Assembly: GCA_963710985.1 (NCBI GenBank)
Contig: CAVQCI010000007.1
Location: 401,240 to 465,239 of the forward strand
DNA length: 64,000 nt
Reading direction: 5' to 3'
Source of the DNA: an uncultured Actinomycetes bacterium
GTDB taxonomy: Bacteria > Actinomycetota > UBA4738 > HRBIN12
This document shows positions 882 through 28,102 of this stretch, one piece after another; position 1 is the stretch's first letter, and each line of letters starts with the position of its first letter. The notes beneath the pieces were generated by a model. It was not told the origin of the DNA and searched no databases. It worked only from the letters and a program-made list of their open reading frames with translations. The translations under genes were made by a program, and so were the position numbers.

Positions 882-2525
<1,644 letters not shown>

Positions 2526-2536: not shown

Positions 2537-2560
2537 GGGGCTCGCGGTCCCGCGAGCCCC
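2537..2560 (-). other. intercistronic groES-groEL stem-loop
   Basis: Perfect 10-bp stem GGGGCTCGCG / CGCGAGCCCC with a 4-nt loop, in the 77-nt spacer between the groES stop (2579) and the groEL start (2501). Confidence 0.4.
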
Positions 2561-2578
2561 GGTCACGTGGATGCTCGG

Positions 2579-2878
2579 CTACTTCTTCTTCATCGTGGCC
2601 AGCACGTCGCGCGCGGAGAGGATCAGGTACTCCTCGCCGTCGACCTTGACCTCGGTGCCGCCGTACTTCGAGTAGATGACGGTGTCGCCGACGGCCACGT
2701 CCAGCGGCACGCGGTTCCCGTCCTCGAACCGGCCGGGGCCTACCGCCACGACCGTCCCTTCCTGCGGCTTCTCCTTCGCCGTGTCCGGGATCACCAGGCC
2801 CGACGCGGTCGTCGTGTCGCTCTCGTTCGCCTGCACGACGATCCGGTCCTCGAGCGGCTGGAGCTTGAAGTCCGCCAT
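2579..2878 (-). CDS. groES: co-chaperonin GroES
   Basis: 99 aa from ATG 2878 (GGAGG about 10 nt upstream): [20 protein letters not shown]...[31 protein letters not shown]. Trimmed from a spurious 486-aa ORF. Confidence 0.95.
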
Positions 2879-3058: not shown

Positions 3059-4132
3059 ATGCACGACCGTGACGTGCTGGTCGTCGACGACCCGGACGTG
3101 CGGACCGCGGGTCGCACGTCGCTCATGACGGTACGCGCGCTCGCGGCGGGCGGGTACCGGCCCCTCCTGGTCACGAACGATCGTCGCTCGATGGCGGGCG
3201 CGTCCGACTCGTGTGCCGGGGTCTTCGTCGCGGATGAGCCGACGACCTCGGGCGTCCTCGCCACCGTGCGAGCGGTCACCGCGAGGATCGGGGAGGTCCC
3301 CACGTTCCCGACGGGCGACGGCATGGTCCTCGCGCTGCATCCCGGGTACGGGCATCTCGTGGACAAGTCGTGCCTCGCCGAGCGGGCGAGCGGGGTCGGG
3401 TTCGAGATGCCGCCCACGCAGCTGGCGCAGGACCGGACGGAGGCACGGTCGATCCACGAGCGCCTCCGCTTCCCGGTGGTCGTGAAGCCTGCCCTCGGCC
3501 ACGGCACCCGGATCGCCCGCGACCCGGCGTCGTTCCTCACGATGGTCCAAGGTCCGTTCCCCATGCTGGTCCAGCCCTATCTCCCCCTGGAGATCCGCAC
3601 GGTCGCCGGCGTCGTCCACGACGGTCGCTTCCGCGCGCTCGTCCATCAGCGCTTCCTGCGCATATGGCCCCCGGACGCCGGGATGGCCGCCGCCTCGATC
3701 ACGACGCCGCCGGATCCGGAGCGCGAATCCAAAGCGCTGGCGCTCCTCGAAGGGTTCGACGGCGTGTTCCAGCTGCAGTTCCTGGGGCCCTACCTGATGG
3801 ACGCCAACCTCCGCGTGTACGCCTCCCTGTCGCTCGCGCTCGCCGCCGGCGTGAACCTCCCCGCGATCTGGTGCGACGCGCGACGCGGCGACGACGCGCC
3901 CCTGCGACGCGCACGTCCCGGCGTCTTCTACCGTTGGTTGGACGCGGACATCCGTCACGCGATCGTGAGCGTCCGTCGCGGCACGCTCTCTCCGTTCGCG
4001 GCCGCGCGGCAGCTCCGGCCGCGACGCCAAACCGCGCACGGCGGCCCGGAGTCGCTCTCGGATCCGAAACCGTCGGTCGCGCGCCTCCGACAGGTGACGT
4101 CTGCCCTTCTGCAGCAGCGGGGACGCGGGTGA
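3059..4132 (+). CDS. ATP-grasp domain protein
   Basis: 357-aa ORF with ATP-grasp-like segments ([36 protein letters not shown]). Family-level call only. Its stop overlaps the next start. Confidence 0.55.
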
Positions 4133-5256
4133 GCGACGCCGGGCTCGCCGGGGCCGGCGAAGCCCCGCGCGTGCTCGTCGTGGGGCAGGGCGAGCCGTCC
4201 CGCGGCGGGATCCCGAGCTTCATCCGGACCCTCCTGGACGACCCGTGGCTCCGTGAGCGCGCCCGGCTCTCCTTCCTGAACACGACCCACGAACCGACGC
4301 GACCGGGCGCCGCGACGCTCGCGAACCTCCGCTGGGCCGTCGACGACGTGCGGCGCGTCCGCAGCGCGGCGCGCGGCGTCGACGTCGTGCACCTGAACCT
4401 GGCGCCGGCGCCGCTGCTCCCCCTCGTCCGCGCGATCTCGCTCGCCCTGGCCGCGAGGTCCGCAGGCGCTCGCGTGGTGCTGCACGCGCACAGCGGCCGG
4501 CTCCACCTCGCCGCGCGCGGACGCGCCTACCGCCTCGCGCTCCGTGCGCTCGTCCGCGCCACCGATGCGATCGTGGTCGTGTCGGATAACGGGGTGGAGA
4601 CCGTGCGCGCCGCCGGCGGCGACGCCGAGCTCCTGCCGAACGCGGTGGACACCTCCGCCTTCGCCCCCGGGGCGCGTGACCCCGACCGCGTCGGGGTCAC
4701 GTTCGTCGGGACGATCTGCGAGCGCAAGGGCCTCGACGACCTCCGCGCCGCGCTCCTGCAGCTGCAGGCCGAGCGCGCCATCCCCGAACGCATCCGCGTG
4801 CGGCTCGTCGGCGACGCCCGCCAGGAGGGCCCCGGTGTGTTCGAACGGGTCCGCGACGCCTACGCGGCGAGCGGGCTCGGCTGGGTCGAGTTCACCGGGG
4901 CCCTCCCGCCCGAGGAGATCCGCGAGGTCCTGGCCACGTCCGAGGTGTTCTGCCTCCCCTCGCACTGGGAAGGCATGCCGATCTCGATGCTCGAGGCGAT
5001 GGCGGCAGGCACGGCGGTGGTCGCGACTCGCGTGGGCGACATCCCCGCCGTGCTCGAGGACGGCCGCGCCGGGGTCCTCGTGGACGTGCGGTCGCCGTCG
5101 CAGCTCGCCGACGCGCTCGGCCGACTGCTGGACGATCCGGACGTACGCCGCCGCCTCGGCGAGGCCGCCCGCGAGATCGCCGTGGCGCGCTACGACCGCC
5201 GCCGGATGACGCAGAGGCTCCTGGAGATCTACCGCCGGCTCGCCTACTCGATGTAG
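4129..5256 (+). CDS. glycosyltransferase family 4 (GT-B)
   Basis: GTG 4129 overlaps the upstream TGA (GTGA). C-terminal GT4 signature [31 protein letters not shown] (E-x7-E). Trimmed from a 628-aa ORF. Confidence 0.8.
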
Positions 5257-6872
5257 CCGAGACCCCGCAGCGACTCCTCGATCGCCTGCTCGTCCTCCTC
5301 GGAGAAGGGGTAGTGGGCGCTGCCCGGCTCGGGCTCCTCCCCCGCCGGGACCACCGCCTCGCGGACCTCGCCCGTCACCGCGCCGCTCAGGATCTCCTCC
5401 GCGACGCGGCCGTCCAGTCCCGCCGGCACCTCGAGCCCTCCCACGCGGAACGCCGTCGGCAAGACGTCGACGATGTCCAACGGCGCGGGGAGCGAGCCGG
5501 TCACGAACGCCGGCCCGGCGCCGATGAAGACGCCGTCCTGGTGGTGATAGCCCCAGGGGCGATCGCGATGGTCGGTCAGCACCGAGGTGGCGGCGAGCGT
5601 GTCGCTCAGCTCGTACCGCTGGTCGCGGCAGACCGGGAACAGGTGCGGCGCGCGCGGCGCGAACGGGCCCTGCGCCGCCTCCTCACGGCGGACCACCCGA
5701 TCCACGACGGGTTCGCCGTCGGCCGGGTCGAGGAGCGCGAGCAGCCGCTCGGTGAGCTCTGCCTCGATCGCCCCGACGTCTCTCGGATCCACCACGCCCA
5801 ACGGCAGCGCGCCGCGCTCGTTCACGTGGATCCCCTGCTCGGCGACTTGCGAGGCGAACGCGCGGGTCCGTTCCCACTCGATCCCGCGGTTGATCCGGCT
5901 CTTCGCCGACAGCAGGAGACCGCGGGGCAGCAGCTTGCGAGCGGCCGCCTGGATCGGACCGGCGACCACCCCGAGGCGCGTGATCCGGCTGACGGCCGGC
6001 AGGCGCAGGTAGCCCCACTCCTGCAGCAGGAGGTTCACGTTGAGCGTCTTCTCCCATGGGCCCGCGCCGTGGTCGGAGGTCACGATCACGTTGCCGTCCT
6101 CGCCGGCCCATGCCACGAGGTCCCCGATCGCCTGGTCCAGCTCGGCGAAGTAGGACCAGGCGCGGCGGCGGAACTCGGGGGCCTCCGGACGCCCGTACCA
6201 CGCGGAGCTCTCCACGAGGTACTGGTAGTGCAGGTGCTGCAGCCGGTCCGGCCCTTCGAACACCGCGAACAGGAACTCCACGTCGCGCCGCTCGAGCAGT
6301 GCCGCGAGGACCTTGCGTCGCATCCTCTGGATCCGCTCGACCTCGTCGATCGACTCGGGGCGGGCCCAGTCGTTCTCGTAGGACACGACGGTGTCGATCG
6401 GGTACGCGCCCCCGCTCACCTCCTCGACGATCTTCGCGACCTCGGCGTCTGAGGCGAACCCACCGGTGTCGGGCGAGGTCCACCCGGCCGCGAGCCCGCC
6501 GGAGACCATGAACCCGCGGACATCCTTCGCGGGCGGGTAGGTCATCGGCACGTTGTAGACGCCGATCGGGGTCTCGCGCTCGGCGGCGTAGCGCCAGATC
6601 GGCGTCGCCGAGATCGTCCCGGAGTGCGCGATCTTCACCGGCTCCTGCGGGGTGGTGGCGAGGAAGCCGTAGACGTTGTGCCGGCCGGGGTTCACCCCGG
6701 TGAGCATCGAGACCCAGGCCGGCGGCGTGTACGCGGGGGTCGTGGAGCGCAAGGTGCCGTCCACCCCTCGCTCGCGGAGCGCGGCGAGGGCCGGCACGAC
6801 GCCGTCCGCACAGAGCGGGTCGAGCAGGCGGAACGTCGCCCCGTCGAGCCCGATGATCGCCGTCTTCCCCAC
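5244..6872 (-). CDS. alkaline-phosphatase-fold / nucleotide pyrophosphatase-phosphodiesterase (NPP) family protein, paralog 1
   Basis: Motifs IIGLDGATF, TPPAWVSMLTGVNPGRHNVYGF and VTSDHGAG; C-terminus RGLGYIE. Start set to GTG 6872 (GGAGG 8 nt upstream); ATG 6944 is the alternative. The 3' end overlaps GT4 convergently by 13 nt. Confidence 0.7.
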   Translation of the reverse strand: MGKTAIIGLDGATFRLLDPLCADGVVPALAALRERGVDGTLRSTTPAYTPPAWVSMLTGVNPGRHNVYGFLATTPQEPVKIAHSGTISATPIWRYAAERETPIGVYNVPMTYPPAKDVRGFMVSGGLAAGWTSPDTGGFASDAEVAKIVEEVSGGAYPIDTVVSYENDWARPESIDEVERIQRMRRKVLAALLERRDVEFLFAVFEGPDRLQHLHYQYLVESSAWYGRPEAPEFRRRAWSYFAELDQAIGDLVAWAGEDGNVIVTSDHGAGPWEKTLNVNLLLQEWGYLRLPAVSRITRLGVVAGPIQAAARKLLPRGLLLSAKSRINRGIEWERTRAFASQVAEQGIHVNERGALPLGVVDPRDVGAIEAELTERLLALLDPADGEPVVDRVVRREEAAQGPFAPRAPHLFPVCRDQRYELSDTLAATSVLTDHRDRPWGYHHQDGVFIGAGPAFVTGSLPAPLDIVDVLPTAFRVGGLEVPAGLDGRVAEEILSGAVTGEVREAVVPAGEEPEPGSAHYPFSEEDEQAIEESLRGLGYIE

Positions 6873-7078
6873 GCCCTGCACCTCCGCCGCCCTTCCCGAC
6901 GCGACCAGCGACGGCCGAGACGCGGGCCTTTCGTCCTCCCCCATGCCCCGGCCGGATCACGTCGGTTCCGCCGATGTCCGGGGGGTCCGAACGAACCGAT
7001 ACCTGGATCGACAGCGTACCGTCCGGCGGCTCGGCAAGGCCCCGCATCCTCGCCGCCGCCACTGCTGAGGGGGATACC

Positions 7079-8332
7079 GTGTCTGGTGGTCCGGGCCGAG
7101 CGCAGGCGCCGTCCGTGCTGTCCCGTTCGCGCGGGTGGATCGTGCTCGCGGTCGTCATGCTGCAGCTGCTCGTGTTCATCGCGGTCGGATCTGCGACCGG
7201 CAAACCGTCGAAGCGCTGCGACCCGACGAAGATCGTCTGTACCAAGCGGTCGCCGTCGCCGTCTCCGTCGCCGAGCGCCTCTTCGACCGCCGCTCCTTCG
7301 CCGAGCGCCTCGCCGACGACCTCACCGTCGCCGTCGCCCTCGCCGGTCCAGCCCACGTCCTCGTCGTCGACCGCCTCGCCCACGGCCACCTCGTCGTCCT
7401 CGAGCCCGTCCCCGACGGCCACGTCCTCGTCGTCGTCGGCGCCCACGTCCTCCGAAGGGATCTTCGAGGCGACGAGCTACTGGAACACGCCGCTCCCCGC
7501 CTCGGCGCCGGTCGACCCGAACTCGAACGCGATCATCGCTTGGCTCCAGGCCGACAACACGACGAACTACCTCCGCCTCGGCGGCGCTACGTCGGCGGGC
7601 ACGTGGGGCAACCCCGTCTACTGGGCCGAGCCGAGCGACCCCACGTACGCCGTCGTCAACACGTGCTCGATGTCCCAGCCGGGGGAGTTCCGCTCCGTGC
7701 GGATCCCGATCGGCGCCCTGCCCGACCCTTCGTCGGATGCGGCGATGACCCTCTACGACCAGAGCGCGGGCATCGTGTACGGCTTCTGGCACACGAGCTA
7801 CGACGCCACCCGCAACGTGTGGAGCGCCTGCGGCGGGACCGTCTACCACCTCGGCTCCAACGGTCTGCATCACGACCTCGCGGCCAGCGACGACCCTCGG
7901 AACACCGGCCACCGCGGGGTGCCTCCCTCCACCTACGCCGCGCTGTACGACGAGATCAAGGCCGGATCGATCGACCACGTGCTGAAGATCGCCGTGGATA
8001 CCACAGGATGCGCACACGTCTTCCCGATGGTCGGCGACGAGTGCGGCACGACCGCGGCGGACGCGCCGCCCGAAGGCACACGGATCAGGATCGACCCGTC
8101 GCTGGACCTGTCCAAGCTCGGACTCTCTTCGGCCGCGCTCGTGATCGCGAAGGCCCTGCAACGCTACGGCGCCGTGATCGGCGACCAGTCGGGCGGCCCC
8201 GTCACGCTGAAGCTCGAGAACACGATCGCGGAAGGCAGGGGCTTCCTGTGGGATCACGTGCTCACCGCCACCGCGCTTCAGGCGATCCCGCTCAGCTCCT
8301 ACGAGGTCGTGCGGCTCGGCTACTCGCCCTAG
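7079..8332 (+). CDS. membrane-anchored/secreted protein with Ser/Pro/Thr-rich linker and a C-terminal domain of unknown function
   Basis: Start set to GTG 7079 (GAGGGGGA upstream); ATG 6974 is the alternative. Hydrophobic helix GWIVLAVVMLQLLVFIAVGSA, then about 80 aa of S/P/T linker, then a roughly 290-aa domain (YWNTPLP...IDHVLKIAV...PPEGTRIRIDPSLDL...) that I cannot place in a family. Confidence 0.5.
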   Translation: MSGGPGRAQAPSVLSRSRGWIVLAVVMLQLLVFIAVGSATGKPSKRCDPTKIVCTKRSPSPSPSPSASSTAAPSPSASPTTSPSPSPSPVQPTSSSSTASPTATSSSSSPSPTATSSSSSAPTSSEGIFEATSYWNTPLPASAPVDPNSNAIIAWLQADNTTNYLRLGGATSAGTWGNPVYWAEPSDPTYAVVNTCSMSQPGEFRSVRIPIGALPDPSSDAAMTLYDQSAGIVYGFWHTSYDATRNVWSACGGTVYHLGSNGLHHDLAASDDPRNTGHRGVPPSTYAALYDEIKAGSIDHVLKIAVDTTGCAHVFPMVGDECGTTAADAPPEGTRIRIDPSLDLSKLGLSSAALVIAKALQRYGAVIGDQSGGPVTLKLENTIAEGRGFLWDHVLTATALQAIPLSSYEVVRLGYSP

Positions 8333-8487
8333 ACCGGTCGGCCGGGCGTCGCTCGACCGATGCGTAGGCCTATCCGAGTCGGTAACGTGAGGGTGTCGTT
8401 GACCACGAGTGAACGACCCTGACGCTCCGGAACGCGGGTCACCCCGTCCTCACCGGGCGGGGTCGACGCGCGGAAGGATGGACGTAG

Positions 8488-9474
8488 GTGGAAGGGTTGA
8501 TCCGGTACGTCTGGCGTCGCTGGTGGATGTTGGTCGCCGGCGTCGTGCTCGGGGGGCTCCTCGGTTTCGCGGTGACGGCGATCCATCAGGACGCGTACGT
8601 GGCGCAATCGTTGGTCGTCCTGACCGACTCGCAGATCCCGTCCACGCAGTTCGTCGACGTGGCTCGGTCGGTGTTCAGCACCGACACGGTCCTCTCGCCC
8701 GTGATCTCCGAGCTCGGGATCAAGGACGAGACACCCCGGAGCCTGATCTCCTCCGGCGCCCTGTCGGTCGTGGCCACGCCCGGCGGGCAAGCCGTGCAGG
8801 TCGTCGCGAAGACGCAGCAGCCGGCGCTCAGCGTCGACCTCGCCAACGCGGCGGCGAAGTCGCTCAAGGACGTCGGCCAGAGCAACGGCCTCGGCACGTT
8901 CGCGCAGTTCGAGACGCAGGGGCCCGCGCGCCGGCAGGCCGACCCGGTCCTGCGCTACACGCTCGCGGGCGCGATCCTCGGGTTCGTGATCGCGGGGCTC
9001 GGGCTCACGCTCTGGTACCTCGCCAAGCACGGCCTCGCCCTTGCCGGCGACCCGCTCAGGGCCGACGCCACGTTCCGGGTGCACGTCAAGGCCGCCGAGA
9101 CCGACGGCGACGGGGTCACCCACCCCCTCGACTTCGCCCCCGAACACGCGCTCCCGGCGCTCTTGCAGGGGATCGAGTCCGGATCCGGAGGCGGCCCCGT
9201 GATCGGCGTCGTCGTGGACGACGGGCGCGACCTCTGGGCGCCGCTCGCCGTCGCGGAGCAGCTGGCGTCGCTCACCGACCACGATGGTGTCGCGCCGTTC
9301 CGCTGGTCGCGCTCGAGCGAGCCGATCCCGCAGACGGATGCGGCATGCGTCGCGGTGATCGCGAGCGAACGCGCGTCCACGGCGCGGCTGCACGACGTGG
9401 GGCGGCAGCTGAGCGACTTCGGTGAGCCGTACCTCGTCCTGGTGCGCGTCTCCGGGTCCGACGTCTCGTCGTGA
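8488..9474 (+). CDS. polysaccharide co-polymerase (Wzz/PCP-like) protein, paralog 1
   Basis: GTG 8488 with GGAAGGA SD. Two hydrophobic helices (WWMLVAGVVLGGLLGFAV; YTLAGAILGFVIAGLGLTLWYL) bracket a roughly 150-aa exported segment. The roughly 110-aa cytoplasmic tail has no P-loop. Confidence 0.55.
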   Translation: MEGLIRYVWRRWWMLVAGVVLGGLLGFAVTAIHQDAYVAQSLVVLTDSQIPSTQFVDVARSVFSTDTVLSPVISELGIKDETPRSLISSGALSVVATPGGQAVQVVAKTQQPALSVDLANAAAKSLKDVGQSNGLGTFAQFETQGPARRQADPVLRYTLAGAILGFVIAGLGLTLWYLAKHGLALAGDPLRADATFRVHVKAAETDGDGVTHPLDFAPEHALPALLQGIESGSGGGPVIGVVVDDGRDLWAPLAVAEQLASLTDHDGVAPFRWSRSSEPIPQTDAACVAVIASERASTARLHDVGRQLSDFGEPYLVLVRVSGSDVSS

Positions 9475-10445
9475 CGATGCGTACCGCCGAACGCACGCCG
9501 GTGCGCCGAGGGCTGCTGAGGCAGCGCGCCTCGGGGCTCGGGACCGGCGGCGACGACACCCTGCTCGTCGCGTGGATCCGCCACTACACGACCGTGATCG
9601 TGCTGTTCGTCCTCGGCACCGTGATCCTGGCGCTCACCTGGGGAGCGCTCACGCTGCCCAAGACCGAGGTCTGGTCGATCGTGGTCGACACCCAGCAGGT
9701 GCTGCCCTCGAGGCAGCTCGGCGTCGTGGCGGAGGCGTTGTTCCGCGCGGAGACCACCTACCGGATCGCGCTGCCCGAGGTCGGCATGACGGACCCGAAC
9801 GAGCTGTACAAGACGGTCCAGCTGATGTCGGTCCCGGAGTCGCGGATCTTGATCATCGTCGCCAAAGGCAGCGACCCGTACCAGGCGTCGCGCGCGGCCG
9901 ACGCGATGGCTCGCGCCCTCGCGCAGGCGTTCGACCAGGCGGGCTACCCGGGCTTCACGGTGCTCGGCTCGCCCCAGCCGGCGCCGATCCCGTCCACGAT
10001 CTCGACCCCCGTCCTCGCATTGCTCGGGGCGCTGGTGGGACTCCTGCTCGGTCTCGGCACCACGATCCTCATCTACCGCGCGAAACATCCGTTGATCGCG
10101 ATGCAGCGCGCGGCGGAGTTCGTGGGACCCCAGACCGTGTTCTCGGCGCCGGGACGTCGCCGATGGCTCGGCGCCCTGCGCACGCATCCGCCGGGGCTCA
10201 CTCGCGCCGGCGTCGGCGTGATCCAGGCGACCATCCCACCGGACGCGGAGGGGTTCCGGATCGTCACGCCGGGCCTCGACGAACGTCGCCGGGAGGAGCT
10301 CCTGCGCGAGCTGGGCGTCTCCGAACACGAGGAAGGACGTCCGCTCCTCGTCTGCGATCCCAAGACGCGGGAAGACGACCTCCTGCGGGCGATGCTCGGT
10401 CGCGCCGACGACGACGGGCCGCCGACCCTCCTGTGGCTCGAGTGA
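9471..10445 (+). CDS. polysaccharide co-polymerase (Wzz/PCP-like) protein, paralog 2
   Basis: GTG 9471 overlaps the upstream stop (GTGA). Same two-helix topology (TVIVLFVLGTVILALTWGAL; VLALLGALVGLLLGLGTTILIY) and a P-loop-less C-terminal tail. Confidence 0.45.
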   Translation: MTMRTAERTPVRRGLLRQRASGLGTGGDDTLLVAWIRHYTTVIVLFVLGTVILALTWGALTLPKTEVWSIVVDTQQVLPSRQLGVVAEALFRAETTYRIALPEVGMTDPNELYKTVQLMSVPESRILIIVAKGSDPYQASRAADAMARALAQAFDQAGYPGFTVLGSPQPAPIPSTISTPVLALLGALVGLLLGLGTTILIYRAKHPLIAMQRAAEFVGPQTVFSAPGRRRWLGALRTHPPGLTRAGVGVIQATIPPDAEGFRIVTPGLDERRREELLRELGVSEHEEGRPLLVCDPKTREDDLLRAMLGRADDDGPPTLLWLE

Positions 10446-10458
10446 TGGAGGACCTCGC

Positions 10459-11850: not shown

Positions 11851-12764
11851 CCCGTGCGAACCTGGTGATCGTCGGCGTCCCCAAGGCGGGAACGAGCTCG
11901 TTGTTCGCCTACCTCGCGCAGCACCCGGACGTCTGCCCGTCGAGCAAGAAGGAGCTCGGGTACTTCACCGGGCGGCGCGAGGACGGTCGTTCGGGCCCGC
12001 TCGAGGACTACGAACGGTTCTTCGCGAACCGCACCGGTGAGCGCTACGCGATGGAGGCGACGCCGGCCTACTGCTACCAGGGGCCCGCGGTCCTGCGCGC
12101 GATCCGCGAGACGCTGGGGGCGCCCCGGCTCCTGCTGATCCTGCGCGAGCCGGTCGAGCGGCTGTGGTCCGCCTACACGTTCCAGCGGAGCCTCGGCCAC
12201 CTCGGCGGCGTGGCGTCGTTCGACGAGTACCTCGACGCCTGCGAAGCCGCCAGGCGCGAGCACCCCTCCATCCTCGACCAGGGCCACCGCAAGGGCCTGT
12301 CGATCGGGATGTACGGCGACTACGTCGGCGGCTGGTGCGAGACGTTCGGCGCCGATCTGCGGGTGCTCTGGTTCGACGACCTGCGCGCAGACCCCGCCGG
12401 CGTCGTCCGCGACGTCTGCTCGTGGCTCGGGATCGACCCGGAGATCGCGTCGTCGTTCCGGTACGGGGCGCGCAACCCGACGATGCATCCGCGAAGCCTC
12501 GCGCTCGCCAGGGGCGCCGCGGTCGGGCGGGGGCTGAGCCGGAAGGTGTTCGGACGGACCCCCGGGCTGAGCGGTCGGCTGCGCGACACGTACTTCCGGT
12601 TGAACGCCGGGCGGCTGCGCGAGGGGCTCCCGCCCGCGACGCGGGCGCGCGCGGTCGCGCTGTACGCGCATTCGAACCGAACGGCGGCCGAAGCGCTGCG
12701 CGCCCACGGCGACACGCTGCCGGCCTGGCTCGAGCCGGCGTCGACGGGCGAGGCGCGCGCGTAG
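11847..12764 (+). CDS. PAPS-dependent sulfotransferase (PF00685-like)
   Basis: GTG 11847 overlaps the upstream stop (GTGA). 5'-PSB loop VGVPKAGTSSL and 3'-PB segment LILREPVERLWSAY. Confidence 0.8.
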   Translation: MTRANLVIVGVPKAGTSSLFAYLAQHPDVCPSSKKELGYFTGRREDGRSGPLEDYERFFANRTGERYAMEATPAYCYQGPAVLRAIRETLGAPRLLLILREPVERLWSAYTFQRSLGHLGGVASFDEYLDACEAARREHPSILDQGHRKGLSIGMYGDYVGGWCETFGADLRVLWFDDLRADPAGVVRDVCSWLGIDPEIASSFRYGARNPTMHPRSLALARGAAVGRGLSRKVFGRTPGLSGRLRDTYFRLNAGRLREGLPPATRARAVALYAHSNRTAAEALRAHGDTLPAWLEPASTGEARA

Positions 12765-12783
12765 CCGCGAGGGCTCCGCTCGC

Positions 12784-13677
12784 TCAGGCGTACCCCAGCT
12801 CGCTCAGGAGCGGCTCGCAGGCCGCGCGGACCTTCGCCTGTTCCTCCGCGGGCCACGCTCGGTACCGCCCGGAGTTCGGGACGATCTCGCGGAGCTTCGC
12901 GACGTTCGGGTCCTCGATCCCGACGTGATGCTCGGTGGCCGCGTAGTCGATCACGCCCGGTTCCCAGGGCTCGCCGAGGAACGCGAACATCGGCTCGAGC
13001 ACGGCGGCCGGATCGGCCGTCAGCTCCTCGTACCGGATCTCGTGGCAGGCCTCCGGGTGCGCCGCGGCGAAGTCCCTCATCTTCCCGGTCTGTCGCCGCC
13101 AGAACAGGCCTCCACCGGCCGCGACGTCGCCGCCGGCCTCGGCGACGCATCGGTCGATCGCCGGGTACCGGCGCTTGGGGTCGGCGAGCGAGTACGCCAC
13201 GTCCATCCCGTGGCGCACGATCGTCACGAACCGCGCGCGCGGTCCGAACAGCTCCCACAGGTCCTCGAGGATGTCGACGTAATGGGGGGTCTTGTCCGCC
13301 CAGCGCGGCTTGCCCTGCGCGGCCGCGTACCCCTCGTAGAACGTCGTGGCGAACGCCGCGAGCCCCTGCGCCACGGCGGCGCGGTCATACCCCATCGCCT
13401 CGAACCCGCGCGTGGACCGCCTGTCGTGCAGGACCTCGACGAGCGGGACGAGGAACGTCGTCTCGGGCGGACACGCGATCCGGGAGTGCGAGTCGAGGAT
13501 CCGCCGCAGCAGCGACGTGCCGCTGCGCTGACAGCCGATCACGAAGATCGGCGCCTCGCCGCTCGCGGCCGTCGCGGGCAGCGCGATCGCCGGGGCGTGG
13601 GGCTCGCGGGAACGCCGCGCCTTGCCCACCCACCGGCGGGCCTTCCTGCCGAACGAGAGCCTCGCGGAGCCGGTCAC
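12784..13677 (-). CDS. sulfotransferase family protein (Sulfotransfer_3-like)
   Basis: GTG 13677 overlaps the upstream stop (GTGA). IFVIGCQRSGTSLL (5'-PSB) and FVTIVRHGMDVAYS (3'-PB). Trimmed from an 808-aa artefact ORF. Confidence 0.8.
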   Translation of the reverse strand: MTGSARLSFGRKARRWVGKARRSREPHAPAIALPATAASGEAPIFVIGCQRSGTSLLRRILDSHSRIACPPETTFLVPLVEVLHDRRSTRGFEAMGYDRAAVAQGLAAFATTFYEGYAAAQGKPRWADKTPHYVDILEDLWELFGPRARFVTIVRHGMDVAYSLADPKRRYPAIDRCVAEAGGDVAAGGGLFWRRQTGKMRDFAAAHPEACHEIRYEELTADPAAVLEPMFAFLGEPWEPGVIDYAATEHHVGIEDPNVAKLREIVPNSGRYRAWPAEEQAKVRAACEPLLSELGYA

Positions 13678-15236
13678 TCGATGTACCCGAGGTCGCGCAG
13701 GTGCTGCGAGATCTCGTCCTGCTCCTGGGGGCTCACCTGGCCGGCGGCGGACCTCACCGCGACGGCAGCGGAGGCGCGCTGTTCGTCCAGGGTCACGTCG
13801 TGGGCCACGATCCCGGCGATCGCCGACCCGTCGAGCCCCGGCACCGCGAGACCCTGCGCGGCGAGCAGCGTCGGCGCGACGTCCACGATCGAGGCGACCC
13901 CGAGCTCGGCGACCGACGCCGAGGACGCGACGAGGATCCCTTCCCGCCGGTGGTCGCCCGAAGGCCACTGCGACGCGCGCGTCACCTGCCCGATGTTGCC
14001 GAGGCTCCACAGCGGCGAGGGCCGGGCGATCAGATCCGGAGCCAGGTCGAGATGCTCCCCGGACGGGAACTCCTCGCGCAGCAGCACCTCCGCGATCGGG
14101 TGATCGCCGGTGCGCGGGTCGCGGTAGGCAAGCATCCCCTCGGCCACCTCGGCACGCACCCGCTCGTGGTCGGCGGCGTCGACCACACCGTGGATCTCGC
14201 GACCCCGCAGGTTGACCGAGACCGCGCCGCCGGTCCCGGACGGATAGGCGAGGGTCCTCGACCAGTCCAGCGTGGCCGGGGCGCGCACCTTCTTCTTGAG
14301 CGCGTACCCGGCGCGCGAGCGGGCCACCTTCCGCACCGGCGCCCAGTGGCGGATCGACCGCGCGACCTCCGCGCGCGAGCCCGCCGACGCGAACCCGGTC
14401 GCCTGCAGGAGCCGGTTCAGGCTGACGACGTTCGCGATCGGCCGGAAGCCGTGGTCGGAGAGCAGGAGCGTGAGCGTTGCGGGACCGGCCGCGGCGCGGA
14501 GGCGGCCCAGCGCCTCGTCGACCAGGGCGTACACGCCGCGGATGCCCTCCGCGATCCCCGACGAGGCCCGTTGCGCGTAGGCGGGGTGCGACGGGAGCAG
14601 GTAGGCCCCGAACGGATGCTGCAGCCGGTCGGGCGCCACGAACACGCACACGGCGACGTCCCACGTCCCCTGAAGGAGCGCCTCGAACGACGCCGTCCGC
14701 GCCTGGACGAGCGAGCGGGCCTCGGCGATCAGGGCCTCGGGCCGGTCGGCGTAGCGGAGCCACTCCATGCCGTTCACCGGGAACGGGGCGACGCGCTCGA
14801 GCTCGGCGGCCCACTCCTTCGGGGTGACGAACGGCGCTCCCTTCGGGATCGCGACCCCGCCGATCATCCGCCCGTGCACGTCCCACGCCGGGAACGTCAC
14901 CGGGATGTTCGCGGCACGCACCTCGACCCCGGCCACCGAGAGCCGGTCCAGGAAGGTCGCCTGCTTGATCGACGTCGAGGAGACCGGCAGGCGGCGGTCC
15001 GGGTCGGTCGGGTCGCGCTCCACGAAGTCCCACACCCCGTGGCCCGCCGGCTGGAAGCCCGTGAGGAACGACGACCACGCCGACCAGGAATGCGAGGGGA
15101 TCGTGGACATCAGCGTGCCACGCGCCCCCTCGGCGAGCATCGCCTGCAGGTGCGGGAGCAGCCCCCGGTCGAGGAGATCGTCGACGATCTCCCAGTCGGC
15201 GCCGTCCCACCCGACGACGAGTACGCGTTGCCTCAC
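13674..15236 (-). CDS. alkaline-phosphatase-fold / NPP family protein, paralog 2
   Basis: GTG 15236 with GGAGGAGG just upstream. VLVVGWDGADW, TIPSHSWSAWSSFLTGFQPAGHGVWDF and LLSDHGF; C-terminus RDLGYIE. Trimmed from a 695-aa ORF. Confidence 0.7.
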   Translation of the reverse strand: MRQRVLVVGWDGADWEIVDDLLDRGLLPHLQAMLAEGARGTLMSTIPSHSWSAWSSFLTGFQPAGHGVWDFVERDPTDPDRRLPVSSTSIKQATFLDRLSVAGVEVRAANIPVTFPAWDVHGRMIGGVAIPKGAPFVTPKEWAAELERVAPFPVNGMEWLRYADRPEALIAEARSLVQARTASFEALLQGTWDVAVCVFVAPDRLQHPFGAYLLPSHPAYAQRASSGIAEGIRGVYALVDEALGRLRAAAGPATLTLLLSDHGFRPIANVVSLNRLLQATGFASAGSRAEVARSIRHWAPVRKVARSRAGYALKKKVRAPATLDWSRTLAYPSGTGGAVSVNLRGREIHGVVDAADHERVRAEVAEGMLAYRDPRTGDHPIAEVLLREEFPSGEHLDLAPDLIARPSPLWSLGNIGQVTRASQWPSGDHRREGILVASSASVAELGVASIVDVAPTLLAAQGLAVPGLDGSAIAGIVAHDVTLDEQRASAAVAVRSAAGQVSPQEQDEISQHLRDLGYIE

Positions 15237-15434
15237 CGTTCCTCCTCCGACGGCCTGCGTCCAGAAGCCTCGACCGGTCCAGAGCCGAGGTTGAGGACCA
15301 CGGGGTGCGATCGTCGATCGTCCGGGACCCAGGCGCCTGGGTGACCTATCATGCCATCCCCTCGGGTCGTGGCCCCGATCCGCTCCGGCCCGGCCCGCCG
15401 ATGCACCGCCGGAGCGGCACGACGAGGACCACCG

Positions 15435-16208
15435 ATGACGATCCTGACCTACCACGCGATCGACCCGGGATGGCGAGCGCCCCTTTCGGTGTCCCCGGCG
15501 CTGTTCGCGCGACAGCTCACCTGGTTGCATCGAAGCCGGCCGATCGTGCACCTGGGCGACGCGATCCCCGGACAGGGTGGCGCCCGGCCGACCGGAGCGA
15601 TCGCCGTGACGTTCGACGACGCCTTCACCTCGGTCTACGAGCACGCGATACCGGTCCTCGAGCGGCTCCGCATCCCGGCCACGATCTTCCTGATCGCCAA
15701 GACGCTCGATCCCGGCGCGGACGGGTTCGAGGTCGACTGGGTCGACCGGCCACCGGCACATCCGCTGCGCGTCCTCGATGCGACGCAGGTCAAGGAGTTG
15801 CAGGCGGCCGGGGTGCGGTTCGGCTCACACAGCTACGCGCACCGGGACCTCACGACACTCGGGTACGAGGCGTGTCTGGAGGACCTCCGTCGCAGTCGCG
15901 CGGTCCTCGAAGACCTCCTGGGCGAACCAGTGACGACCCTGGCCTACCCGAGGGGCCGCCACGACGAGACCGTGCGGCGCGCGGCCGCCGAGGCCGGGTT
16001 CGTGTGGTCCTTCGGGCTGTCGGTCCCCGAGCGGATCGCCGGCCCGCAGGCGGTGCCGCGCGTGGGGGTGTATCCGGCGGATACGCCGTTGAGCCTCTGG
16101 GTAAAGACCCGGGGATGGTACGGACGGTTCCGAGCGAGCGGGCCCTATCCCTGGTTGCGGCGCAGGGTGGATCGGCTGCGCCCGGGCGCACCGCCGCGGC
16201 AGGCCTGA
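15435..16208 (+). CDS. polysaccharide deacetylase (NodB/CE4 family)
   Basis: ATG 15435 (ILTYHAI...). NodB motifs AVTFDDAF, GSHSYAHRDL and LAYPRG. ATG 15351 is an alternative start. Confidence 0.8.
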   Translation: MTILTYHAIDPGWRAPLSVSPALFARQLTWLHRSRPIVHLGDAIPGQGGARPTGAIAVTFDDAFTSVYEHAIPVLERLRIPATIFLIAKTLDPGADGFEVDWVDRPPAHPLRVLDATQVKELQAAGVRFGSHSYAHRDLTTLGYEACLEDLRRSRAVLEDLLGEPVTTLAYPRGRHDETVRRAAAEAGFVWSFGLSVPERIAGPQAVPRVGVYPADTPLSLWVKTRGWYGRFRASGPYPWLRRRVDRLRPGAPPRQA

Positions 16209-16301
16209 CCTTCGGACGCAACCGGCGGATGTGCTGATGCACAGGGGGAACTGCGCCTTTAGGACTAAAGGAGGGCTTCACGGAGTCCCCTGGATAGGCC
16301 T

Positions 16302-17723
16302 ATGATGCCCAGAACGTCCCCCGAACGGGGGAGCCCGGCTCATATGGCATACGTAGACCCCTCGATCCATCCCACCCCCGACTCCGGTGCTCTCCCCGGG
16401 CACCTGGGTGGCGTGTACGTCCGGCGGGCCGAGGGGCTATCCACCCGCCGGCTCGTCCTCACGCTCGACGTCGTCGTGCTGGCGGCGTTCGCGGCGATCC
16501 ACGGTGGGATCGCCGGCGTCGCCTACGCGGTCCTTGCGCTGTTCGGGCTGAAGGCCGCGCGGGTGTACGGACCGAGGATCCAGCCGCGCCTGGGCGACGA
16601 CGTGCCGCGACTGCTGGCCGCGGTGGTCACCCCGGTCATCGTGCTGCCGCTGTTCGCCTCGAACCGCGAGCTCGGGGCGATCCTCGCGACGCTGCCGTTC
16701 GTCGTGTTCGCGTTGCTGGTGGGGCGATCGGTCACCTACACGATCTTGAACCGCGCGCGGGCGGCCGGTCACCGGCACGACCGGGTGCTGCTCGTCGGTG
16801 CGGGCGACCGTGGGATCGAGATGGCGCGGATCCTCCGGGAGCACCCGAAGTACGGCCTCGAGCCGGTCGGGTTCGTCGATGAGATCGCGCTCGGCTCGTT
16901 GCCCCTTCCGCTGCTGGGCGGCGTCGAAGATCTCTCCCGCCTCGTGTCGATCCACGGGATCGACCGCGTGATCGTGGCCGGATGGGAAGGTGAGGACGAC
17001 CTGCTGCTGCCGGCGCTGCGCGCGTGCACCGCCCGCCATGTCCAGGTCCATGTCGCCCCGCGCCTGTTCCAGCTCGGCACGGCGCCCGCGAACCCCTCGA
17101 CCGACTGGCTGTGGACCACGCCGGTCGTTCGCCTGCCCGCCATGCCGCGGGACACGCGTGCGTGGCAGGTCAAGCGTGCGATCGACCTCGGCGTCTCGGG
17201 GACGGCGCTGGTGGTGACCGCGCCGCTGTTCCTCGCGCTCGCGGCCGTGATCAAGCTCTCGAGCCCCGGTCCGGTGCTCTTCCGCCAGACGCGCGTCACG
17301 GAGGGCGGTCGGCTGTTCGAGCTGCTGAAGTTCCGTTCGATGCCGCTCAACGACTCGTCGGACACGCATTGGCACGGGGAGCTCCAACCGACCTGGATCG
17401 GCAGGGTGATGCGCTCGACCGGTCTGGACGAGCTGCCGCAGCTGCTGAACATCCTGCGCGGGGACATGTCGCTCGTGGGGCCTCGCCCCGAGCGCCCGTA
17501 CTTCGCGGAGCGCTTCATGGAATCGATCGACGGCTACGCGGACCGTCTGCGCGTGCCGGCCGGGCTGACCGGCTGGGCACAGGTGCACGGCCTGCGTGGC
17601 GACACCTCGATCGAGGAGCGCGCGATGTTCGACAACGAGTACATCGAGTACTGGTCGCTGTGGCGCGACTTCGTCATCATGGTCCGCACCGTGAAGACGT
17701 TCGTGGCCGGCGAAGGTCGGTAG
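16302..17723 (+). CDS. polyprenyl-phosphate sugar-phosphate transferase (priming glycosyltransferase, WbaP/EpsB-like)
   Basis: 473 aa with N-terminal TM helices plus a bacterial sugar transferase domain: KRAIDL, PGPVLFRQTRV, LLKFRSM, DELPQLLNILRGDMSLVGPRPERP. Confidence 0.85.
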   Translation: MMPRTSPERGSPAHMAYVDPSIHPTPDSGALPGHLGGVYVRRAEGLSTRRLVLTLDVVVLAAFAAIHGGIAGVAYAVLALFGLKAARVYGPRIQPRLGDDVPRLLAAVVTPVIVLPLFASNRELGAILATLPFVVFALLVGRSVTYTILNRARAAGHRHDRVLLVGAGDRGIEMARILREHPKYGLEPVGFVDEIALGSLPLPLLGGVEDLSRLVSIHGIDRVIVAGWEGEDDLLLPALRACTARHVQVHVAPRLFQLGTAPANPSTDWLWTTPVVRLPAMPRDTRAWQVKRAIDLGVSGTALVVTAPLFLALAAVIKLSSPGPVLFRQTRVTEGGRLFELLKFRSMPLNDSSDTHWHGELQPTWIGRVMRSTGLDELPQLLNILRGDMSLVGPRPERPYFAERFMESIDGYADRLRVPAGLTGWAQVHGLRGDTSIEERAMFDNEYIEYWSLWRDFVIMVRTVKTFVAGEGR

Positions 17724-17738
17724 GTCCGGTCGCTCGCG

Positions 17739-18770
17739 GTGCCCGTCCCCTCCCAGGACGTCCCCATGCCCGACGCACCCGAGCTCATCACGGTCGTGGT
17801 CCCCGCGAGGAACGAACGTGCGTCGATCGAGGCCTGTCTCGCGTCGATCACGTCGCAGACCTACCCCGCGCTGCAGATCGTCGTCGTCGACGGCACATCC
17901 ACCGACGGCACCCGGGAGGCGGTGCGCCGCCTGGCCGCGGAGGATCCGCGGATCGAGCTGTGCACCGACACGGACGGACGGATCCCCGTGTCGATGAACG
18001 CGGGGCTCGCCGCGGCGCGCGGCCGCTGGCTCGCGCGCGTGGACGCCCACTCGATCGTGCCGCCCGACTACGTGGCGGTCCTCGTGCGCCATCTCGCGAC
18101 CGGCCCGTGGGGCGGCGTCGGAGGCCGCAAGGACGCCGCGCCCGCAGACACCCCGACCGCCCGCGCGATCGCGGCCGCGCTCGGTTCGCGGGCGGGCGTC
18201 GGCAACTCCGCCTACCACTACGCCGAGCAGCCCCAGACGGTCGACCACATCCCGTTCGGCGTCTACCCGGTAGAGCTGCTGCGCTCGCTCGGCGGCTGGG
18301 ACGTGTCCCTCGACGCGAACGAGGACTACGAGCTCGACTACCGGATCCGCGCATGTGGGCGGGAGCTGCTGCTCGATCCCTCCGTGCGGATCTCGTGGCG
18401 CTCCAAAGAGACGATCGGCGCGCTCTTCGCGCAGTACCGGCGGTACGGGCGAGGCAAGGCCGACGTCGCGCGACTGCACCCCGGTTCCCTCGCGGTCCGC
18501 CACCTCGTGCCGCCGGCGCTCGTGGCCGGCGCGCTCCCCTGGACGGCGATCGCGGGCCGGCGTCCCCGCGTGGCGCTGCTGCTCGCGCTCCCCTACCTCG
18601 TGTTCATCGCGGCGGCCGGCGTCTCGGTCGCGCGCGAGATGCGCGAACCCCGCCTCGCGTCGCGCGTCACCCTCGCGCTCGGCGCGATGCACGTCGGCTG
18701 GGGACTGGGCTTCTGGGAGGGCACGCTGGCACACCTGCGCGGACGGCGCCCGACGGCCGCACCGGCCTGA
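17739..18770 (+). CDS. glycosyltransferase family 2 with C-terminal membrane helices
   Basis: [20 protein letters not shown] and ARVDAHS; hydrophobic C-terminal third. GTG 17739 (ATG 17766 is the alternative). Confidence 0.8.
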
Positions 18771-18783
18771 AGGCCCGCGCGAC

Positions 18784-19761
18784 TCACGATCCGGGTTCGG
18801 GCTCGCCGAGCCGGTAGCCGCGCGCCTCGAGGTATGGGCCGATCGCCTCCTCGAGCTGGGCCACCTGCGCGGGCGTGAGGTCCTTGCGGAACGCCTCCCG
18901 CCGCGACGTCGCGACCGGATAGCGGCCGAACGCCTCCTCGAACGGGGCGTTCCAGGCGAGCCCCGCGAGGTCGAGGATCGCCGGCCACGAACCGCGCGGA
19001 TCGCCGACGATGTCCTCGTAGCGGAGCTCCAGGTACCGCTGCGGCGGGATCCGCTTCGCGACCTCGTCGAAGGCGTCCATCAAGATCGCCCACTCCAGCC
19101 CCGCGAGCACCACGAACGACCGGTTGCTGCGTTCCCAGCGCTCGCGCAGATCCTCGGGGAGCTCGCCGAAGCCCCATCCCGGGACGCCGAGGTACCCCTT
19201 CCACCAGGGCCGTTGGATGATCGAGCTCGCGACCGCCCTGCCGTCGCGCACGACGTGGAGGAACCGCGCGTTCGGCATCACCCGGTCGATGAACCGCGCG
19301 CGAGGCCACCCCGTGAACTTGTGCATGAACACCGGCGTCCGCTGCGCCGCGGCCCGCTCCTCGAAGAAGGTCCGGAACCGGGCCGCGAGCCACGGCGTGA
19401 CGTCGTCCTCGGTCAGGTCGCGGAACGGCGCCGACACGGCCGGCGCGACCTGCCGGCTGATCAGCTTGTACCCCTCCGACGGGCCGAAGTGGATCCGCTC
19501 GCCCAGGGTGAACCGCAGGTTCTTGAGGTAGGCGCGGTCACGGCGGCCGAGCGCCGATGGCACCGACCCGTACAGGAGATGGTTGCGTGCGCCCTTCGGG
19601 TTCCAGCCCGCGAGCGCCGTGTCGACGTTGGACACGAACCCGACGTCGGGATGACGCGCGATCAGCTCCTGCACGAGCGTCGACCCGCACCGGCCGGTGC
19701 CGATGATGAACAGGTACGTGGGGCTCGTCGTCTCGCTCACCTCCGAGCCTCGCTCTCCCAT
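18784..19761 (-). CDS. sulfotransferase family protein (third copy)
   Basis: ATG 19761. [14 protein letters not shown] (5'-PSB) and [14 protein letters not shown] (3'-PB). Confidence 0.75.
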
Positions 19762-27441: not shown

Positions 27442-28102
27442 CCGACTTCCTCAGGTAGAGCGGCACGACGTCGTACAGACGGTCGTGCTCCTCGCGCAGC
27501 AGGCGCGGCACCGCCAGCTCGACCAGCGCCGCGGCGTCCGGATGGGCGACCGCGGGCGAGGCGAACACGATCCGCGCGCCCGCCGCCTGGAGCACGTCCC
27601 GGTACAGGATGGCACCATCCCCGACCGCGAGCATCTCCCCCGGCCACGTCTCGAGCTGCGCCACCAGGTGGTCCGCCGTCTGCACCGCGAACGGCGTGTG
27701 GCGCATCACGCCCCCGGGCACCGGCTTGTAGATCGCGCTGAACACCTCGCCGCGTCGGCCGTCGATCACGGCGACGATCGTGCGGTGCGTGTAGCGCACG
27801 GCGTAGGCGAGCGCGTCGAGGCTGGTGATGCCGAGGATCGGCGCGAGCGTCACCTGCGCGAGGGTCTTCGCGGTCTCGACCCCGACGCGCAGGCCCGTGA
27901 ACAGACCGGGTCCGATCCCCACCGCGAACCCGCCCACCTGGTCGAGGTCGACCCCGGACCAGCGCAGCAGCTGCTCGAGCGCCGGTGTCACGGACTCCTG
28001 CCTGGCTTTGCCGACGACCTGGATCCGCCCGAGGATCTCGTGCTCGGTGCCGATCGCGACCGAGGTCTGCGGCGTCGACGTATCGATCGCGACGACGATC
28101 AC
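27401..28102 (-). CDS. tsaB: tRNA threonylcarbamoyladenosine biosynthesis protein TsaB
   Basis: GTG 28102 overlaps the tsaE stop (GTGA). [17 protein letters not shown]..., [13 protein letters not shown]. Confidence 0.85.

Follow-up and report, generated by a model that had tools for sequence, protein, structure and literature searches.

The stretch of DNA analysed here, 64,000 nucleotides of contig CAVQCI010000007.1 from an uncultured Actinomycetes bacterium (hereafter, the window), carries 14 contiguous intact genes at positions 3059-19761 that make up a Wzy-type glycan pathway with three sulfotransferases. Because the GC content of the window is about 71%, mechanical lists of open reading frames (ORFs) are full of shadow ORFs; genes were called by GC at the third codon position (GC3). 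This frame analysis, together with Pfam and NCBIfam scans, recovered all 14 genes where an earlier note on the same DNA had placed them. The tally of families is one priming transferase, one GT2 and one GT4 glycosyltransferase, one Wzy_C protein, two proteins resembling polysaccharide co-polymerases (PCP/Wzz-like), a CE4 deacetylase, an ATP-grasp protein, two NPP-fold enzymes, the three sulfotransferases and a secreted protein, g4, that was missing from the earlier description. Judging from these families, we consider it probable that we are dealing with a chromosomal Wzy-dependent cluster for a sulfated cell-surface or extracellular heteropolysaccharide, belonging to an uncultured, mostly soil and desert lineage of Actinomycetota. 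The genes are as follows (lengths in amino acids, aa; TM, transmembrane).

g1, 3059-4132, forward strand: ATP-grasp ligase, 357 aa.
g2, 4129-5256, forward strand: GT4 glycosyltransferase, 375 aa.
g3, 5244-6944, reverse strand: NPP/PhnA-fold enzyme of the AlkP superfamily, paralog A, 566 aa.
g4, 6974-8332, forward strand: secreted, membrane-anchored protein with a TM anchor, a Ser/Pro/Thr linker and a 290-aa domain.
g5, 8488-9474, forward strand: PCP/Wzz-like protein, 2 TM segments, 328 aa.
g6, 9471-10445, forward strand: second PCP-like protein, 2 TM segments, 324 aa.
g7, 10459-11850, forward strand: Wzy/O-antigen-ligase family protein, 463 aa, about 10 TM segments.
g8, 11847-12764, forward strand: sulfotransferase resembling heparan sulfate (HS) 3-OST and NDST, 305 aa.
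g9, 12784-13677, reverse strand: TPST/CurM-like Sulfotransfer_3 sulfotransferase, 297 aa.
g10, 13674-15236, reverse strand: NPP-fold enzyme, paralog B, 520 aa.
g11, 15351-16208, forward strand: CE4 polysaccharide deacetylase, likely start at 15435.
g12, 16302-17723, forward strand: priming polyprenyl-phosphate glycosylphosphotransferase, 473 aa.
g13, 17739-18770, forward strand: GT2 glycosyltransferase, 343 aa.
g14, 18784-19761, reverse strand: divergent Sulfotransfer_3 sulfotransferase, 325-343 aa, the ORF extending to 19815.

Start and stop codons overlap as GTGA at four junctions (g1/g2, g5/g6, g7/g8 and g10/g9), which points to operons with translational coupling. By hydropathy and sequence inspection, no TM segment or signal peptide is present in the sulfotransferases, the CE4 protein, the ATP-grasp protein or the NPP-fold proteins. 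This fits modification of a lipid-linked unit in the cytoplasm, where the sulfate donor 3′-phosphoadenosine 5′-phosphosulfate (PAPS) is available. Rfam and tRNA scans of the window gave no matches, and a promoter and terminator scan was uninformative in DNA of 71% GC.

All three proteins proposed as sulfotransferases score above the Pfam gathering thresholds and keep their PAPS-binding residues. The scores are 40.5 bits for Sulfotransfer_1 (threshold 22) and 37.1 bits for Sulfotransfer_3 (threshold 27) in g8, and 116.1 and 73.4 bits for Sulfotransfer_3 in g9 and g14, respectively (gathering threshold 27). The motifs PKAGTSSL, CQRSGTSLL and GRCGSTLV that had been pointed out were all found, with little or no variation among orthologs: the 5′-phosphosulfate-binding (5′-PSB) loops they contain, PKAGTSS in g8, QRSGTSL in g9 and GRCGST in g14, are invariant or at least 80% conserved, and their counterparts in the alignments are the PSB loops of 3-OST-1 and TPST2. 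The 3′-phosphate-binding (3′-PB) pair had been given with six residues between Arg and Ser. The spacing is in fact R-x7-S in all three proteins (R100/S108 in g8, R155/S163 in g9, R190/S198 in g14), and these pairs are conserved and aligned to the solved enzymes.

Among structures in the PDB, g8 matches by sequence the bacterial sulfotransferase 3rnl (E 4.9e-21), 3-OST-1 (1.8e-10) and NST (1.8e-9), as well as 3-OST-3. Its invariant residues over 13 sequences are K13, T16, S18, E70, R100 and S108, and E70 aligns to the Glu of the VEKTPAY motif of 3-OST-1. The solved relatives of g9 are TPST (2.8e-12) and the CurM sulfotransferase (2.3e-10); R51, S52, G53, T54, S55, E72, K129, R155 and S163 are invariant over 25 sequences, and E72 aligns to the Glu of the CGEET motif of TPST. 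We take the Glu residues that align to E70 (in 3-OST-1) and to E72 (in TPST2) to be the catalytic bases of those enzymes. For g14, the 13 sequences compared agree without exception at R42, G44, K166, R190 and S198, and conservation reaches at least 80% at E114, in the remaining GRCGST loop residues and in a stretch ending in Ser. The putative catalytic residues line up with those of solved enzymes for g8 and g9, and g14 offers a candidate, E114. The three proteins are nearly unalignable to each other, which argues for distinct specificities and not for recent duplicates. It is reasonable to suggest, on the basis of these comparisons, that g8, g9 and g14 represent three different subfamilies, pointing to three sulfation specificities.

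The assembly enzymes are, for the most part, clear members of their families, and the Wzy_C, Bac_transf, Phosphodiest and Polysacc_deac_1 models that had been named for this cluster all score above threshold. The priming transferase g12 reaches 194.3 bits for Bac_transf and 339.6 bits for TIGR03025, the exopolysaccharide (EPS) polyprenyl glycosylphosphotransferase family (cut-off 295.55). The glycosyltransferase g2 scores 112.6 bits for Glyco_trans_1_4 and 110.1 bits for Glycos_transf_1, with sub-threshold NCBIfam matches to EPS-type GT4 enzymes, and g13 scores 92.7 bits for Glycos_transf_2. Wzy_C is found in g7 at 73.5 bits (cut-off 31.7), with its TM segments counted by hydropathy. The deacetylase g11 reaches 91.6 bits for Polysacc_deac_1 (cut-off 23.1), and the metal-binding motifs TFDD and HSYAH are present in its sequence. 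Both g5 and g6 have the two-TM topology of PCP proteins and are kept in relatives, g5 in the same position. For g6, which has no match among the Pfam and NCBIfam hidden Markov models (HMMs), the designation "Wzz-like" rests on this topology and on the weak resemblance of its N-terminal region to g5 (E 1.6e-5). The ATP-grasp assignment of g1 falls short when the single sequence is used (ATPgrasp_Ter, 23.3 bits against a cut-off of 29.1) and stands at the level of the family: eight of eight members match ATP-grasp models, the family profile finds CPSase (2e-14) and RimK (1.6e-8), and the ATP-binding Lys (K143) and the Mg motif D248-x-N250 are invariant. Sequence comparison, therefore, confirms g1 as an ATP-grasp protein at family level.

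The two NPP-fold proteins are full-length paralogs of each other (30% identity, E 1e-50), with Phosphodiest scores of 119.6 bits for g3 and 127.7 bits for g10 (cut-off 23). An AlphaFold2 (AF2) model of g3, with a pLDDT of 81, matches PhnA, NPP and ENPP7 in Foldseek at E of about 1e-13; its conserved residues are D33, the nucleophile T72, D233/H237, D291/H292 and H467/H468. The bimetal ligands are kept in g10, which has Ser at the position of the nucleophile. The true start of g3 is probably some 24 codons downstream. The start of g10 is the GTG at 15236, preceded by the Shine-Dalgarno sequence GGAGGAGG; a longer ORF, 13674-15761, has an Arg-rich N-terminus antisense to g11 and is spurious. The start of g9 lies across the g10 stop.

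This adjacency of NPP-fold enzyme and sulfotransferase recurs elsewhere. An NPP gene adjoins a g9-type sulfotransferase in 17 loci, including three from distant unclassified bacteria (L035, L040 and L042 among the loci compared), and an NPP gene is present in all loci of the Actinomycetota lineage; of the roughly 64 distant sulfotransferase loci, only 4 have one. The idea of a sulfotransferase and NPP pair as a general cross-phylum module is, consequently, only partly true. Public annotation labels the NPP homologs generically as "predicted AlkP superfamily phosphohydrolase/phosphomutase", and we found no described precedent in the literature for such NPP-fold enzymes in a sulfotransferase/Wzy cluster. 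Two more specific identities were considered and rejected. As PhnA, g3 and g10 reach 30.8 and 24.7 bits for the equivalog TIGR02335, against a cut-off of 407.55. A phosphonate link through the neighbouring DAO gene fares no better, since the "aminophosphonate oxidoreductase" model gives 226 bits where 632 are required, and the gene adjoins the cluster only here and in L001. Agl7 of Haloferax volcanii (HVO_2046), implicated in the sulfation of a dolichol-phosphate-linked hexose and reported to have a sulfation phenotype (PMC3892788), may be a parallel within the AlkP superfamily; the papers gave neither an annotation nor a fold to confirm this, and it is not used as evidence.

The secreted protein g4 has no Pfam, NCBIfam or PDB sequence match, and its AF2 model, of high confidence (pLDDT 94.8, pTM 0.92), has no significant fold match in the PDB. 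Searched against BFVD, the model finds phage tail proteins at E from 7e-19 to 1e-10 and TMq of 0.6-0.7; among these are a Gordonia phage minor tail protein and a "parallel beta-helix repeat" protein, the best match having E 7e-19 and TMq 0.70. The sequence itself matches PHROG 17388, "minor tail protein", at 3.4e-6. In g4, the residues D90, D94, H152, H174, E206 and D243 are invariant. The family of this domain has 6388 representatives at E ≤ 1e-3, and its long members join the domain to CBM96, FN3/Ig, dockerin and Metallophos modules. Such fusions are the usual architecture of secreted carbohydrate-active enzymes, which makes a glycan-processing enzyme likely; we infer that g4 is likely an extracellular enzyme that trims or releases glycan. 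It is found in most related loci and missing from a few, some of which are truncated. Genes of the g4 type occur as a tandem triplicate in L017 (49-2963) and as a duplicate in L008 (14803-15669 and 17875-19032), which suggests diversification of an extracellular processing enzyme.

The neighbourhood of sulfotransferase, NPP and Wzy genes is conserved in related genomes. Homologs of g9 number 541 at E ≤ 1e-10, almost all of them metagenomic, and those above about 50% identity all belong to uncultured Actinomycetota metagenome-assembled genomes (MAGs), as seen in contig look-ups and a scan of species-representative genomes. Judging by their names, these MAGs stem from studies of soils, deserts and saline lakes. 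In a tblastn matrix, about 15 species-level genomes have the cluster in synteny. Of the loci fetched, eight carry the full trio of sulfotransferases (L001, L002, L004, L006, L007, L008, L016 and L020; L009 is the same contig as L001), and other loci have one or two, so that the complement varies much like serotype determinants. Against the closest syntenic relative, L006, the ratio of nonsynonymous to synonymous substitutions (dN/dS) is 0.15-0.40 for every gene, indicating purifying selection. This relative (JBLMXP010000150.1; a locus 88% identical, with 73-87% protein identity) was deposited as "Planctomycetaceae bacterium MAG253" and is probably mis-binned, because all other close relatives are Actinomycetota.

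Relatives also carry genes that the window does not have. A flippase gene, wzx (Polysacc_synt), lies exactly between g9 and g8 in L001, L004, L007 and L008, and at other positions within the cluster in L012 and L016-L019; a second ATP-grasp gene sits between those for CE4 and NPP, and an Acetyltransf_6 gene beside the third sulfotransferase. No remnant of any of the three was found in the window by tblastn (best E 0.17). The same reduced layout is seen in L006, and L002 and L003 are likewise devoid of an in-cluster Wzx, which indicates that the form lacking it is a stable variant. In L002 (3030-3767), L007 and L016, a Lysyl_oxidase gene (PF01186) lies between the third sulfotransferase and GT2, an unusual family for a bacterial polysaccharide cluster.

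The pathway we propose would run as follows. The TIGR03025 family member g12 would start the repeat unit on undecaprenyl phosphate, and g13 (GT2) and g2 (GT4) would extend it to at least a trisaccharide. On the cytoplasmic face, g11 would N-deacetylate an N-acetyl-hexosamine and the soluble, PAPS-type g8, g9 and g14 would add sulfate at different positions. The CE4 enzyme and g8 may form a split analogue of the eukaryotic N-deacetylase/N-sulfotransferase, making N-sulfo-glucosamine, and g1 may amidate an amine or a carboxylate. Since the cluster has no Wzx, this flippase must act in trans, and the unit would be exported by a Wzx encoded elsewhere. Polymerisation would be the task of g7, aided by the PCP-like g5 and g6, and g4, anchored in the membrane outside the cell, might trim or release the polymer. 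The cytoplasmic g3 and g10, which have complete predicted active sites and are genetically tied to the sulfotransferases, would act at a step that we can only guess at.

Several observations weigh against a sulfated heteropolysaccharide. The sulfated product is a prediction from the genes, and the organism is uncultured. In the 64-kb window, we found no Wzx by Pfam scans or by tblastn with the Wzx of a relative (best E 0.40), and Pfam scans found no cysD/N/C, ATP sulfurylase or APS kinase; these scans covered the non-ribosomal genes at 24.9-45 kb. An ABC exporter is likewise absent from the window, and the flanks of L001-L005, to ±10 kb, have no PAPS-synthesis genes either. The earlier note had already reported the lack of Wzx and of cysD/N/C in the window and had called the pathway incomplete here. 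This agrees with our scans and with the layout of relatives, many of which have Wzx between g9 and g8, where the window cleanly lacks it. Membership in Wzy_C does not separate a polymerase from a ligase or O-oligosaccharyltransferase. The proposal of two Wzz-like proteins holds for topology and not for HMM scores, g5 staying below the Pfam Wzz cut-off (24.7 against 25.5 bits). The candidate base of g14, E114, lies in a region that has no alignment to a solved enzyme. The nearest solved relatives of g9 are protein-tyrosine sulfotransferases, so its acceptor need not be a sugar; given the glycan-biosynthesis context, it probably is one. For g3 and g10, our guess is the turnover of a nucleotide by-product or donor (3′-phosphoadenosine 5′-phosphate, PAP; PAPS; or nucleotide sugar) or the transfer of a phospho-substituent. 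Finally, frameshift-like assembly defects affect other parts of the window (alr, UDG/tsaE and L18-S5), none of them within the cluster.

Three rival explanations were considered. It is possible, though we hold it unlikely, that a short sulfated oligosaccharide is transferred to proteins (O-glycosylation) or to another acceptor, with g7 as a ligase or oligosaccharyltransferase of the PglL/WaaL type. The breadth of Wzy_C, which spans ligases, O-oligosaccharyltransferases and polymerases, would allow it, as would the small number of glycosyltransferases in the cluster (two and a primer), and sulfated protein-linked glycans exist in haloarchaea (PMC3892788). The best NCBIfam match of g7 is [quoted passage not shown], with TfpM also found; however, all such ligase matches are far below their cut-offs (48.8 against 188 bits for the best). 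Moreover, g7 directly follows the genes for the two PCP/Wzz-like proteins in an operon marked by GTGA overlaps, g12 scores above the cut-off of the EPS-type TIGR03025, and the g4 domain, similar to phage tail or depolymerase-type modules and fused elsewhere to a CBM, fits a polymer as substrate. We see as improbable a second scenario, in which the acceptor of at least one sulfotransferase, above all of the TPST-like g9, is not a glycan but a protein or peptide tyrosine, a lipid or a small metabolite, the NPP-fold partner works on the same molecule and only part of the cluster concerns glycan sulfation. Besides the kinship of g9 to TPST1/2 and to the polyketide sulfotransferase CurM, what speaks for it is that JGI labels many g9 homologs "protein-tyrosine sulfotransferase" and that the pair of g9 and NPP is also adjacent in the distant L035, L040 and L042. 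Two of these, L035 and L040, have a Wzx-like gene within 6 kb, though, and every locus of the Actinomycetota lineage has the g9-g10 pair enclosed, with Wzx/Wzy on one side and priming/glycosyltransferase genes on the other. Sulfotransfer_3 includes carbohydrate sulfotransferases, and the single NCBIfam match of g9 is the nodulation protein NoeE (40.4 bits, cut-off 500). Genes for a peptide substrate, a polyketide synthase (PKS) or an acyltransferase do not occur among the 14 called genes, no dedicated search having been made.

The remaining rival, that the cluster is a decaying or non-functional remnant that has lost Wzx, the second ATP-grasp and Acetyltransf_6 and exports no product, appears to us very unlikely. 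In its favour, no remnant of these three genes is present and other genes of the assembly (alr, UDG) are disrupted; yet all 14 genes are full-length compared with their orthologs, the dN/dS values were obtained against a relative with the same reduced layout, L002 and L003 share the lack of an in-cluster Wzx as a stable variant, and flippases are often encoded elsewhere. None of the three rivals is favoured by the evidence. A literature search turned up no paper that ties this cluster to a characterised product lacking sulfate.

A more far-reaching proposal can be built on the sulfated heteropolysaccharide, and we regard it as rather doubtful: this may be an undescribed sulfated-glycan system, typical of this uncultured soil lineage of Actinomycetota, in which a cytoplasmic NPP-fold metalloenzyme is an obligate partner of Sulfotransfer_3 and the g4 domain founds a glycan-active family shared with actinophage tails. 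The NPP could then be dedicated to handling PAP or PAPS, or could modify the glycan by a new step of phospho- or sulfo-transfer, and actinophage tails could use the g4 domain as a depolymerase for this glycan.

On one side of the cluster lie groEL at 882-2501 (reverse strand) and groES at about 2560-2860 (reverse strand), and on the other a tsaD-rimI-tsaB-tsaE-alr block starting at 25886. The position of groES puts the cluster, along with a few additional genes, in the interval from the groES-groEL operon to the tsaD block. These two are, we presume, normally adjacent in actinobacterial gene order, so that the stretch of about 22 kb between them resembles an insertion. Apart from the glycan cluster, it holds a phospholipase C (PLC)/acid-phosphatase lipoprotein, a DAO oxidoreductase, a ceramidase-like membrane protein, a beta-lactamase-fold protein and an NAD-dependent sugar epimerase/dehydratase (24945-25889). 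The first of these is a possible accessory gene of the cluster, beyond the range of the earlier note, and adjoins it also in L002, L004, L006 and L008:

g15, 19909-21456, forward strand: phospholipase C/acid phosphatase lipoprotein, Phosphoesterase (PF04185) 234.5 bits, lipobox-like LAAC.

The rest of the window is housekeeping: the epimerase, tsaD/B/E, rimI, alr, acpS, glmS, glmM, ars genes and ribosomal operons. Within it, alr (30272-31377, reverse strand) is split into a C-terminal domain (30272-30715) and an N-terminal domain (30733-31305), the change of frame at about 30715-30733 being a frameshift or an assembly indel. The ORF 28099-29241 (reverse strand) joins the truncated N-terminus of a family-4 uracil-DNA glycosylase (UDG), an Arg-rich stretch that looks out of frame and a complete TsaE; it probably represents a UDG gene that has suffered a frameshift and continues into tsaE. 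A single ORF of 327 aa (52478-53461, reverse strand) encodes ribosomal proteins L18 and S5 with no intervening stop, which may reflect a real fusion, read-through or a sequencing error where L18 should end. An ORF with ArsR-type helix-turn-helix (HTH) and ArsP permease regions (37325-38119, forward strand) is followed, after a gap, by another (38443-38814, forward strand) that has the C-terminal end of ArsP and a sub-threshold thioredoxin-like match (19.9 against 24.8 bits); the two are probably pieces of one more disrupted gene. Genes for an ArsR regulator, for a methyltransferase and for a low-molecular-weight (LMW) phosphatase/ArsC-like protein are found nearby. Ribosomal protein L13 (40158-40880, reverse strand) has a C-terminal extension of about 100 aa, weakly similar to HC2 histone H1-like proteins (20.8 against 40 bits).

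Sulfated polysaccharides retain water, bind cations and have value as biomaterials. The genetics of bacterial sulfated polysaccharides has been chemically shown only for the cyanobacterial synechan and was proposed for actinomycetes only in 2026. The cluster family described here recurs in hundreds of metagenomic contigs, many from sample sets that are of soil or desert type judging by their names. This recurrence suggests that some uncultured group of Actinomycetota, itself widespread, produces a surface glycan with multiple sulfates, which could matter for desiccation tolerance and soil aggregation. The set of 14 genes is compact for heterologous production, and its bacterial sulfotransferases of the carbohydrate type, three distinct ones, could serve glyco-engineering. 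Two concrete targets for biochemical study are the g4 domain and the NPP-fold partners.

The few sulfated glycoconjugates that the earlier note had given as background are by now a dated list, since three comparable clusters have been described. The best known is xss of Synechocystis sp. PCC 6803, a Wzx/Wzy cluster with a chemically proven sulfated product, synechan, in which two sulfotransferases in the cluster correspond to two sulfates per repeat (PMC8205485). Common to both clusters are a Wzy, a priming transferase and sulfotransferases drawn from different subfamilies, and the PCP of xss has PCP-like counterparts here. As to differences, xss has two sulfotransferases, eight glycosyltransferases, an in-cluster Wzx and the XssQRS regulators, and is borne on a megaplasmid of a diderm cyanobacterium, whereas the present cluster has three sulfotransferases, two glycosyltransferases and a primer, CE4, ATP-grasp, two NPP-fold proteins and g4, has neither Wzx nor regulator, and is chromosomal in a (presumably monoderm) actinobacterium, its sulfate being predicted from gene content. 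Closer in taxonomy is wps-1 of Actinoplanes missouriensis (2026), a Wzx/Wzy cluster with two sulfotransferases. The part of its description considered here proposes a sulfated EPS, with sulfation unverified by its authors (PMC13390465). This too is an actinomycete cluster with sulfotransferases of different families, one of them of the heparan-sulfate type like g8, and its GH26 glycanase WpsE is comparable to the role proposed for g4. In that same part of the description, on which and not on sequence our comparison is based, Wzx, a methyltransferase, a kinase-like protein and GH26 are given, with no mention of NPP-fold, CE4 or ATP-grasp proteins. In Pontiella sulfatireligans, the exopolymer is sulfated, mostly N-sulfated, and the link between cluster and product is unproven (PMC7356697). 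As here, a PF13469 sulfotransferase lies inside a polysaccharide cluster rich in GT2 and GT4 genes in a non-cyanobacterial organism; Pontiella, however, belongs to Kiritimatiellae, and its cluster has a different gene set with one sulfotransferase. MAGs from Shark Bay mats extend the idea of sulfated polysaccharides to other phyla (PMC9723792).

Outside bacteria, the HS enzymes NDST and 3-OST (1nst, 8ccy, 1vkj and 3uan) align with g8 over about 200 residues, in which the 5′-PSB Lys/Thr, the Glu position and the 3′-PB Arg/Ser are kept, and a separate CE4 enzyme encoded near g8 mirrors the order of N-deacetylation and N-sulfation in HS. The identity is about 25-30%, a by-eye estimate from the alignment, and g8 differs from these enzymes in being bacterial, soluble and single-domain. 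The deacetylase of NDST1 is a His-His-Asp (beta/alpha)7 metal enzyme (PMC10864358), and CE4 is of the same mechanistic class; here the deacetylase is a separate protein, whereas in NDST it is a fused Agd3-like domain. With TPST1/2 and CurM, g9 has in common the PAPS-binding residues, the putative Glu base and a sequence signature at the level of the fold, but it sits in a context of glycan biosynthesis with no PKS among the called genes. The core fold, the bimetal ligands and the Thr/Ser nucleophile of NPP and PhnA are shared by g3 and g10, which at 520-566 aa are about 150 residues longer than PhnA or the Xac NPP, contain large insertions and, unlike these, are cytoplasmic. Taken together, sulfotransferase-bearing Wzx/Wzy clusters are already known, proven for xss and proposed for Actinoplanes and Pontiella; what differs here is the set of three sulfotransferases, the conserved NPP-fold pair, the combination of CE4 and ATP-grasp, the g4 domain and the uncultured actinobacterial host.

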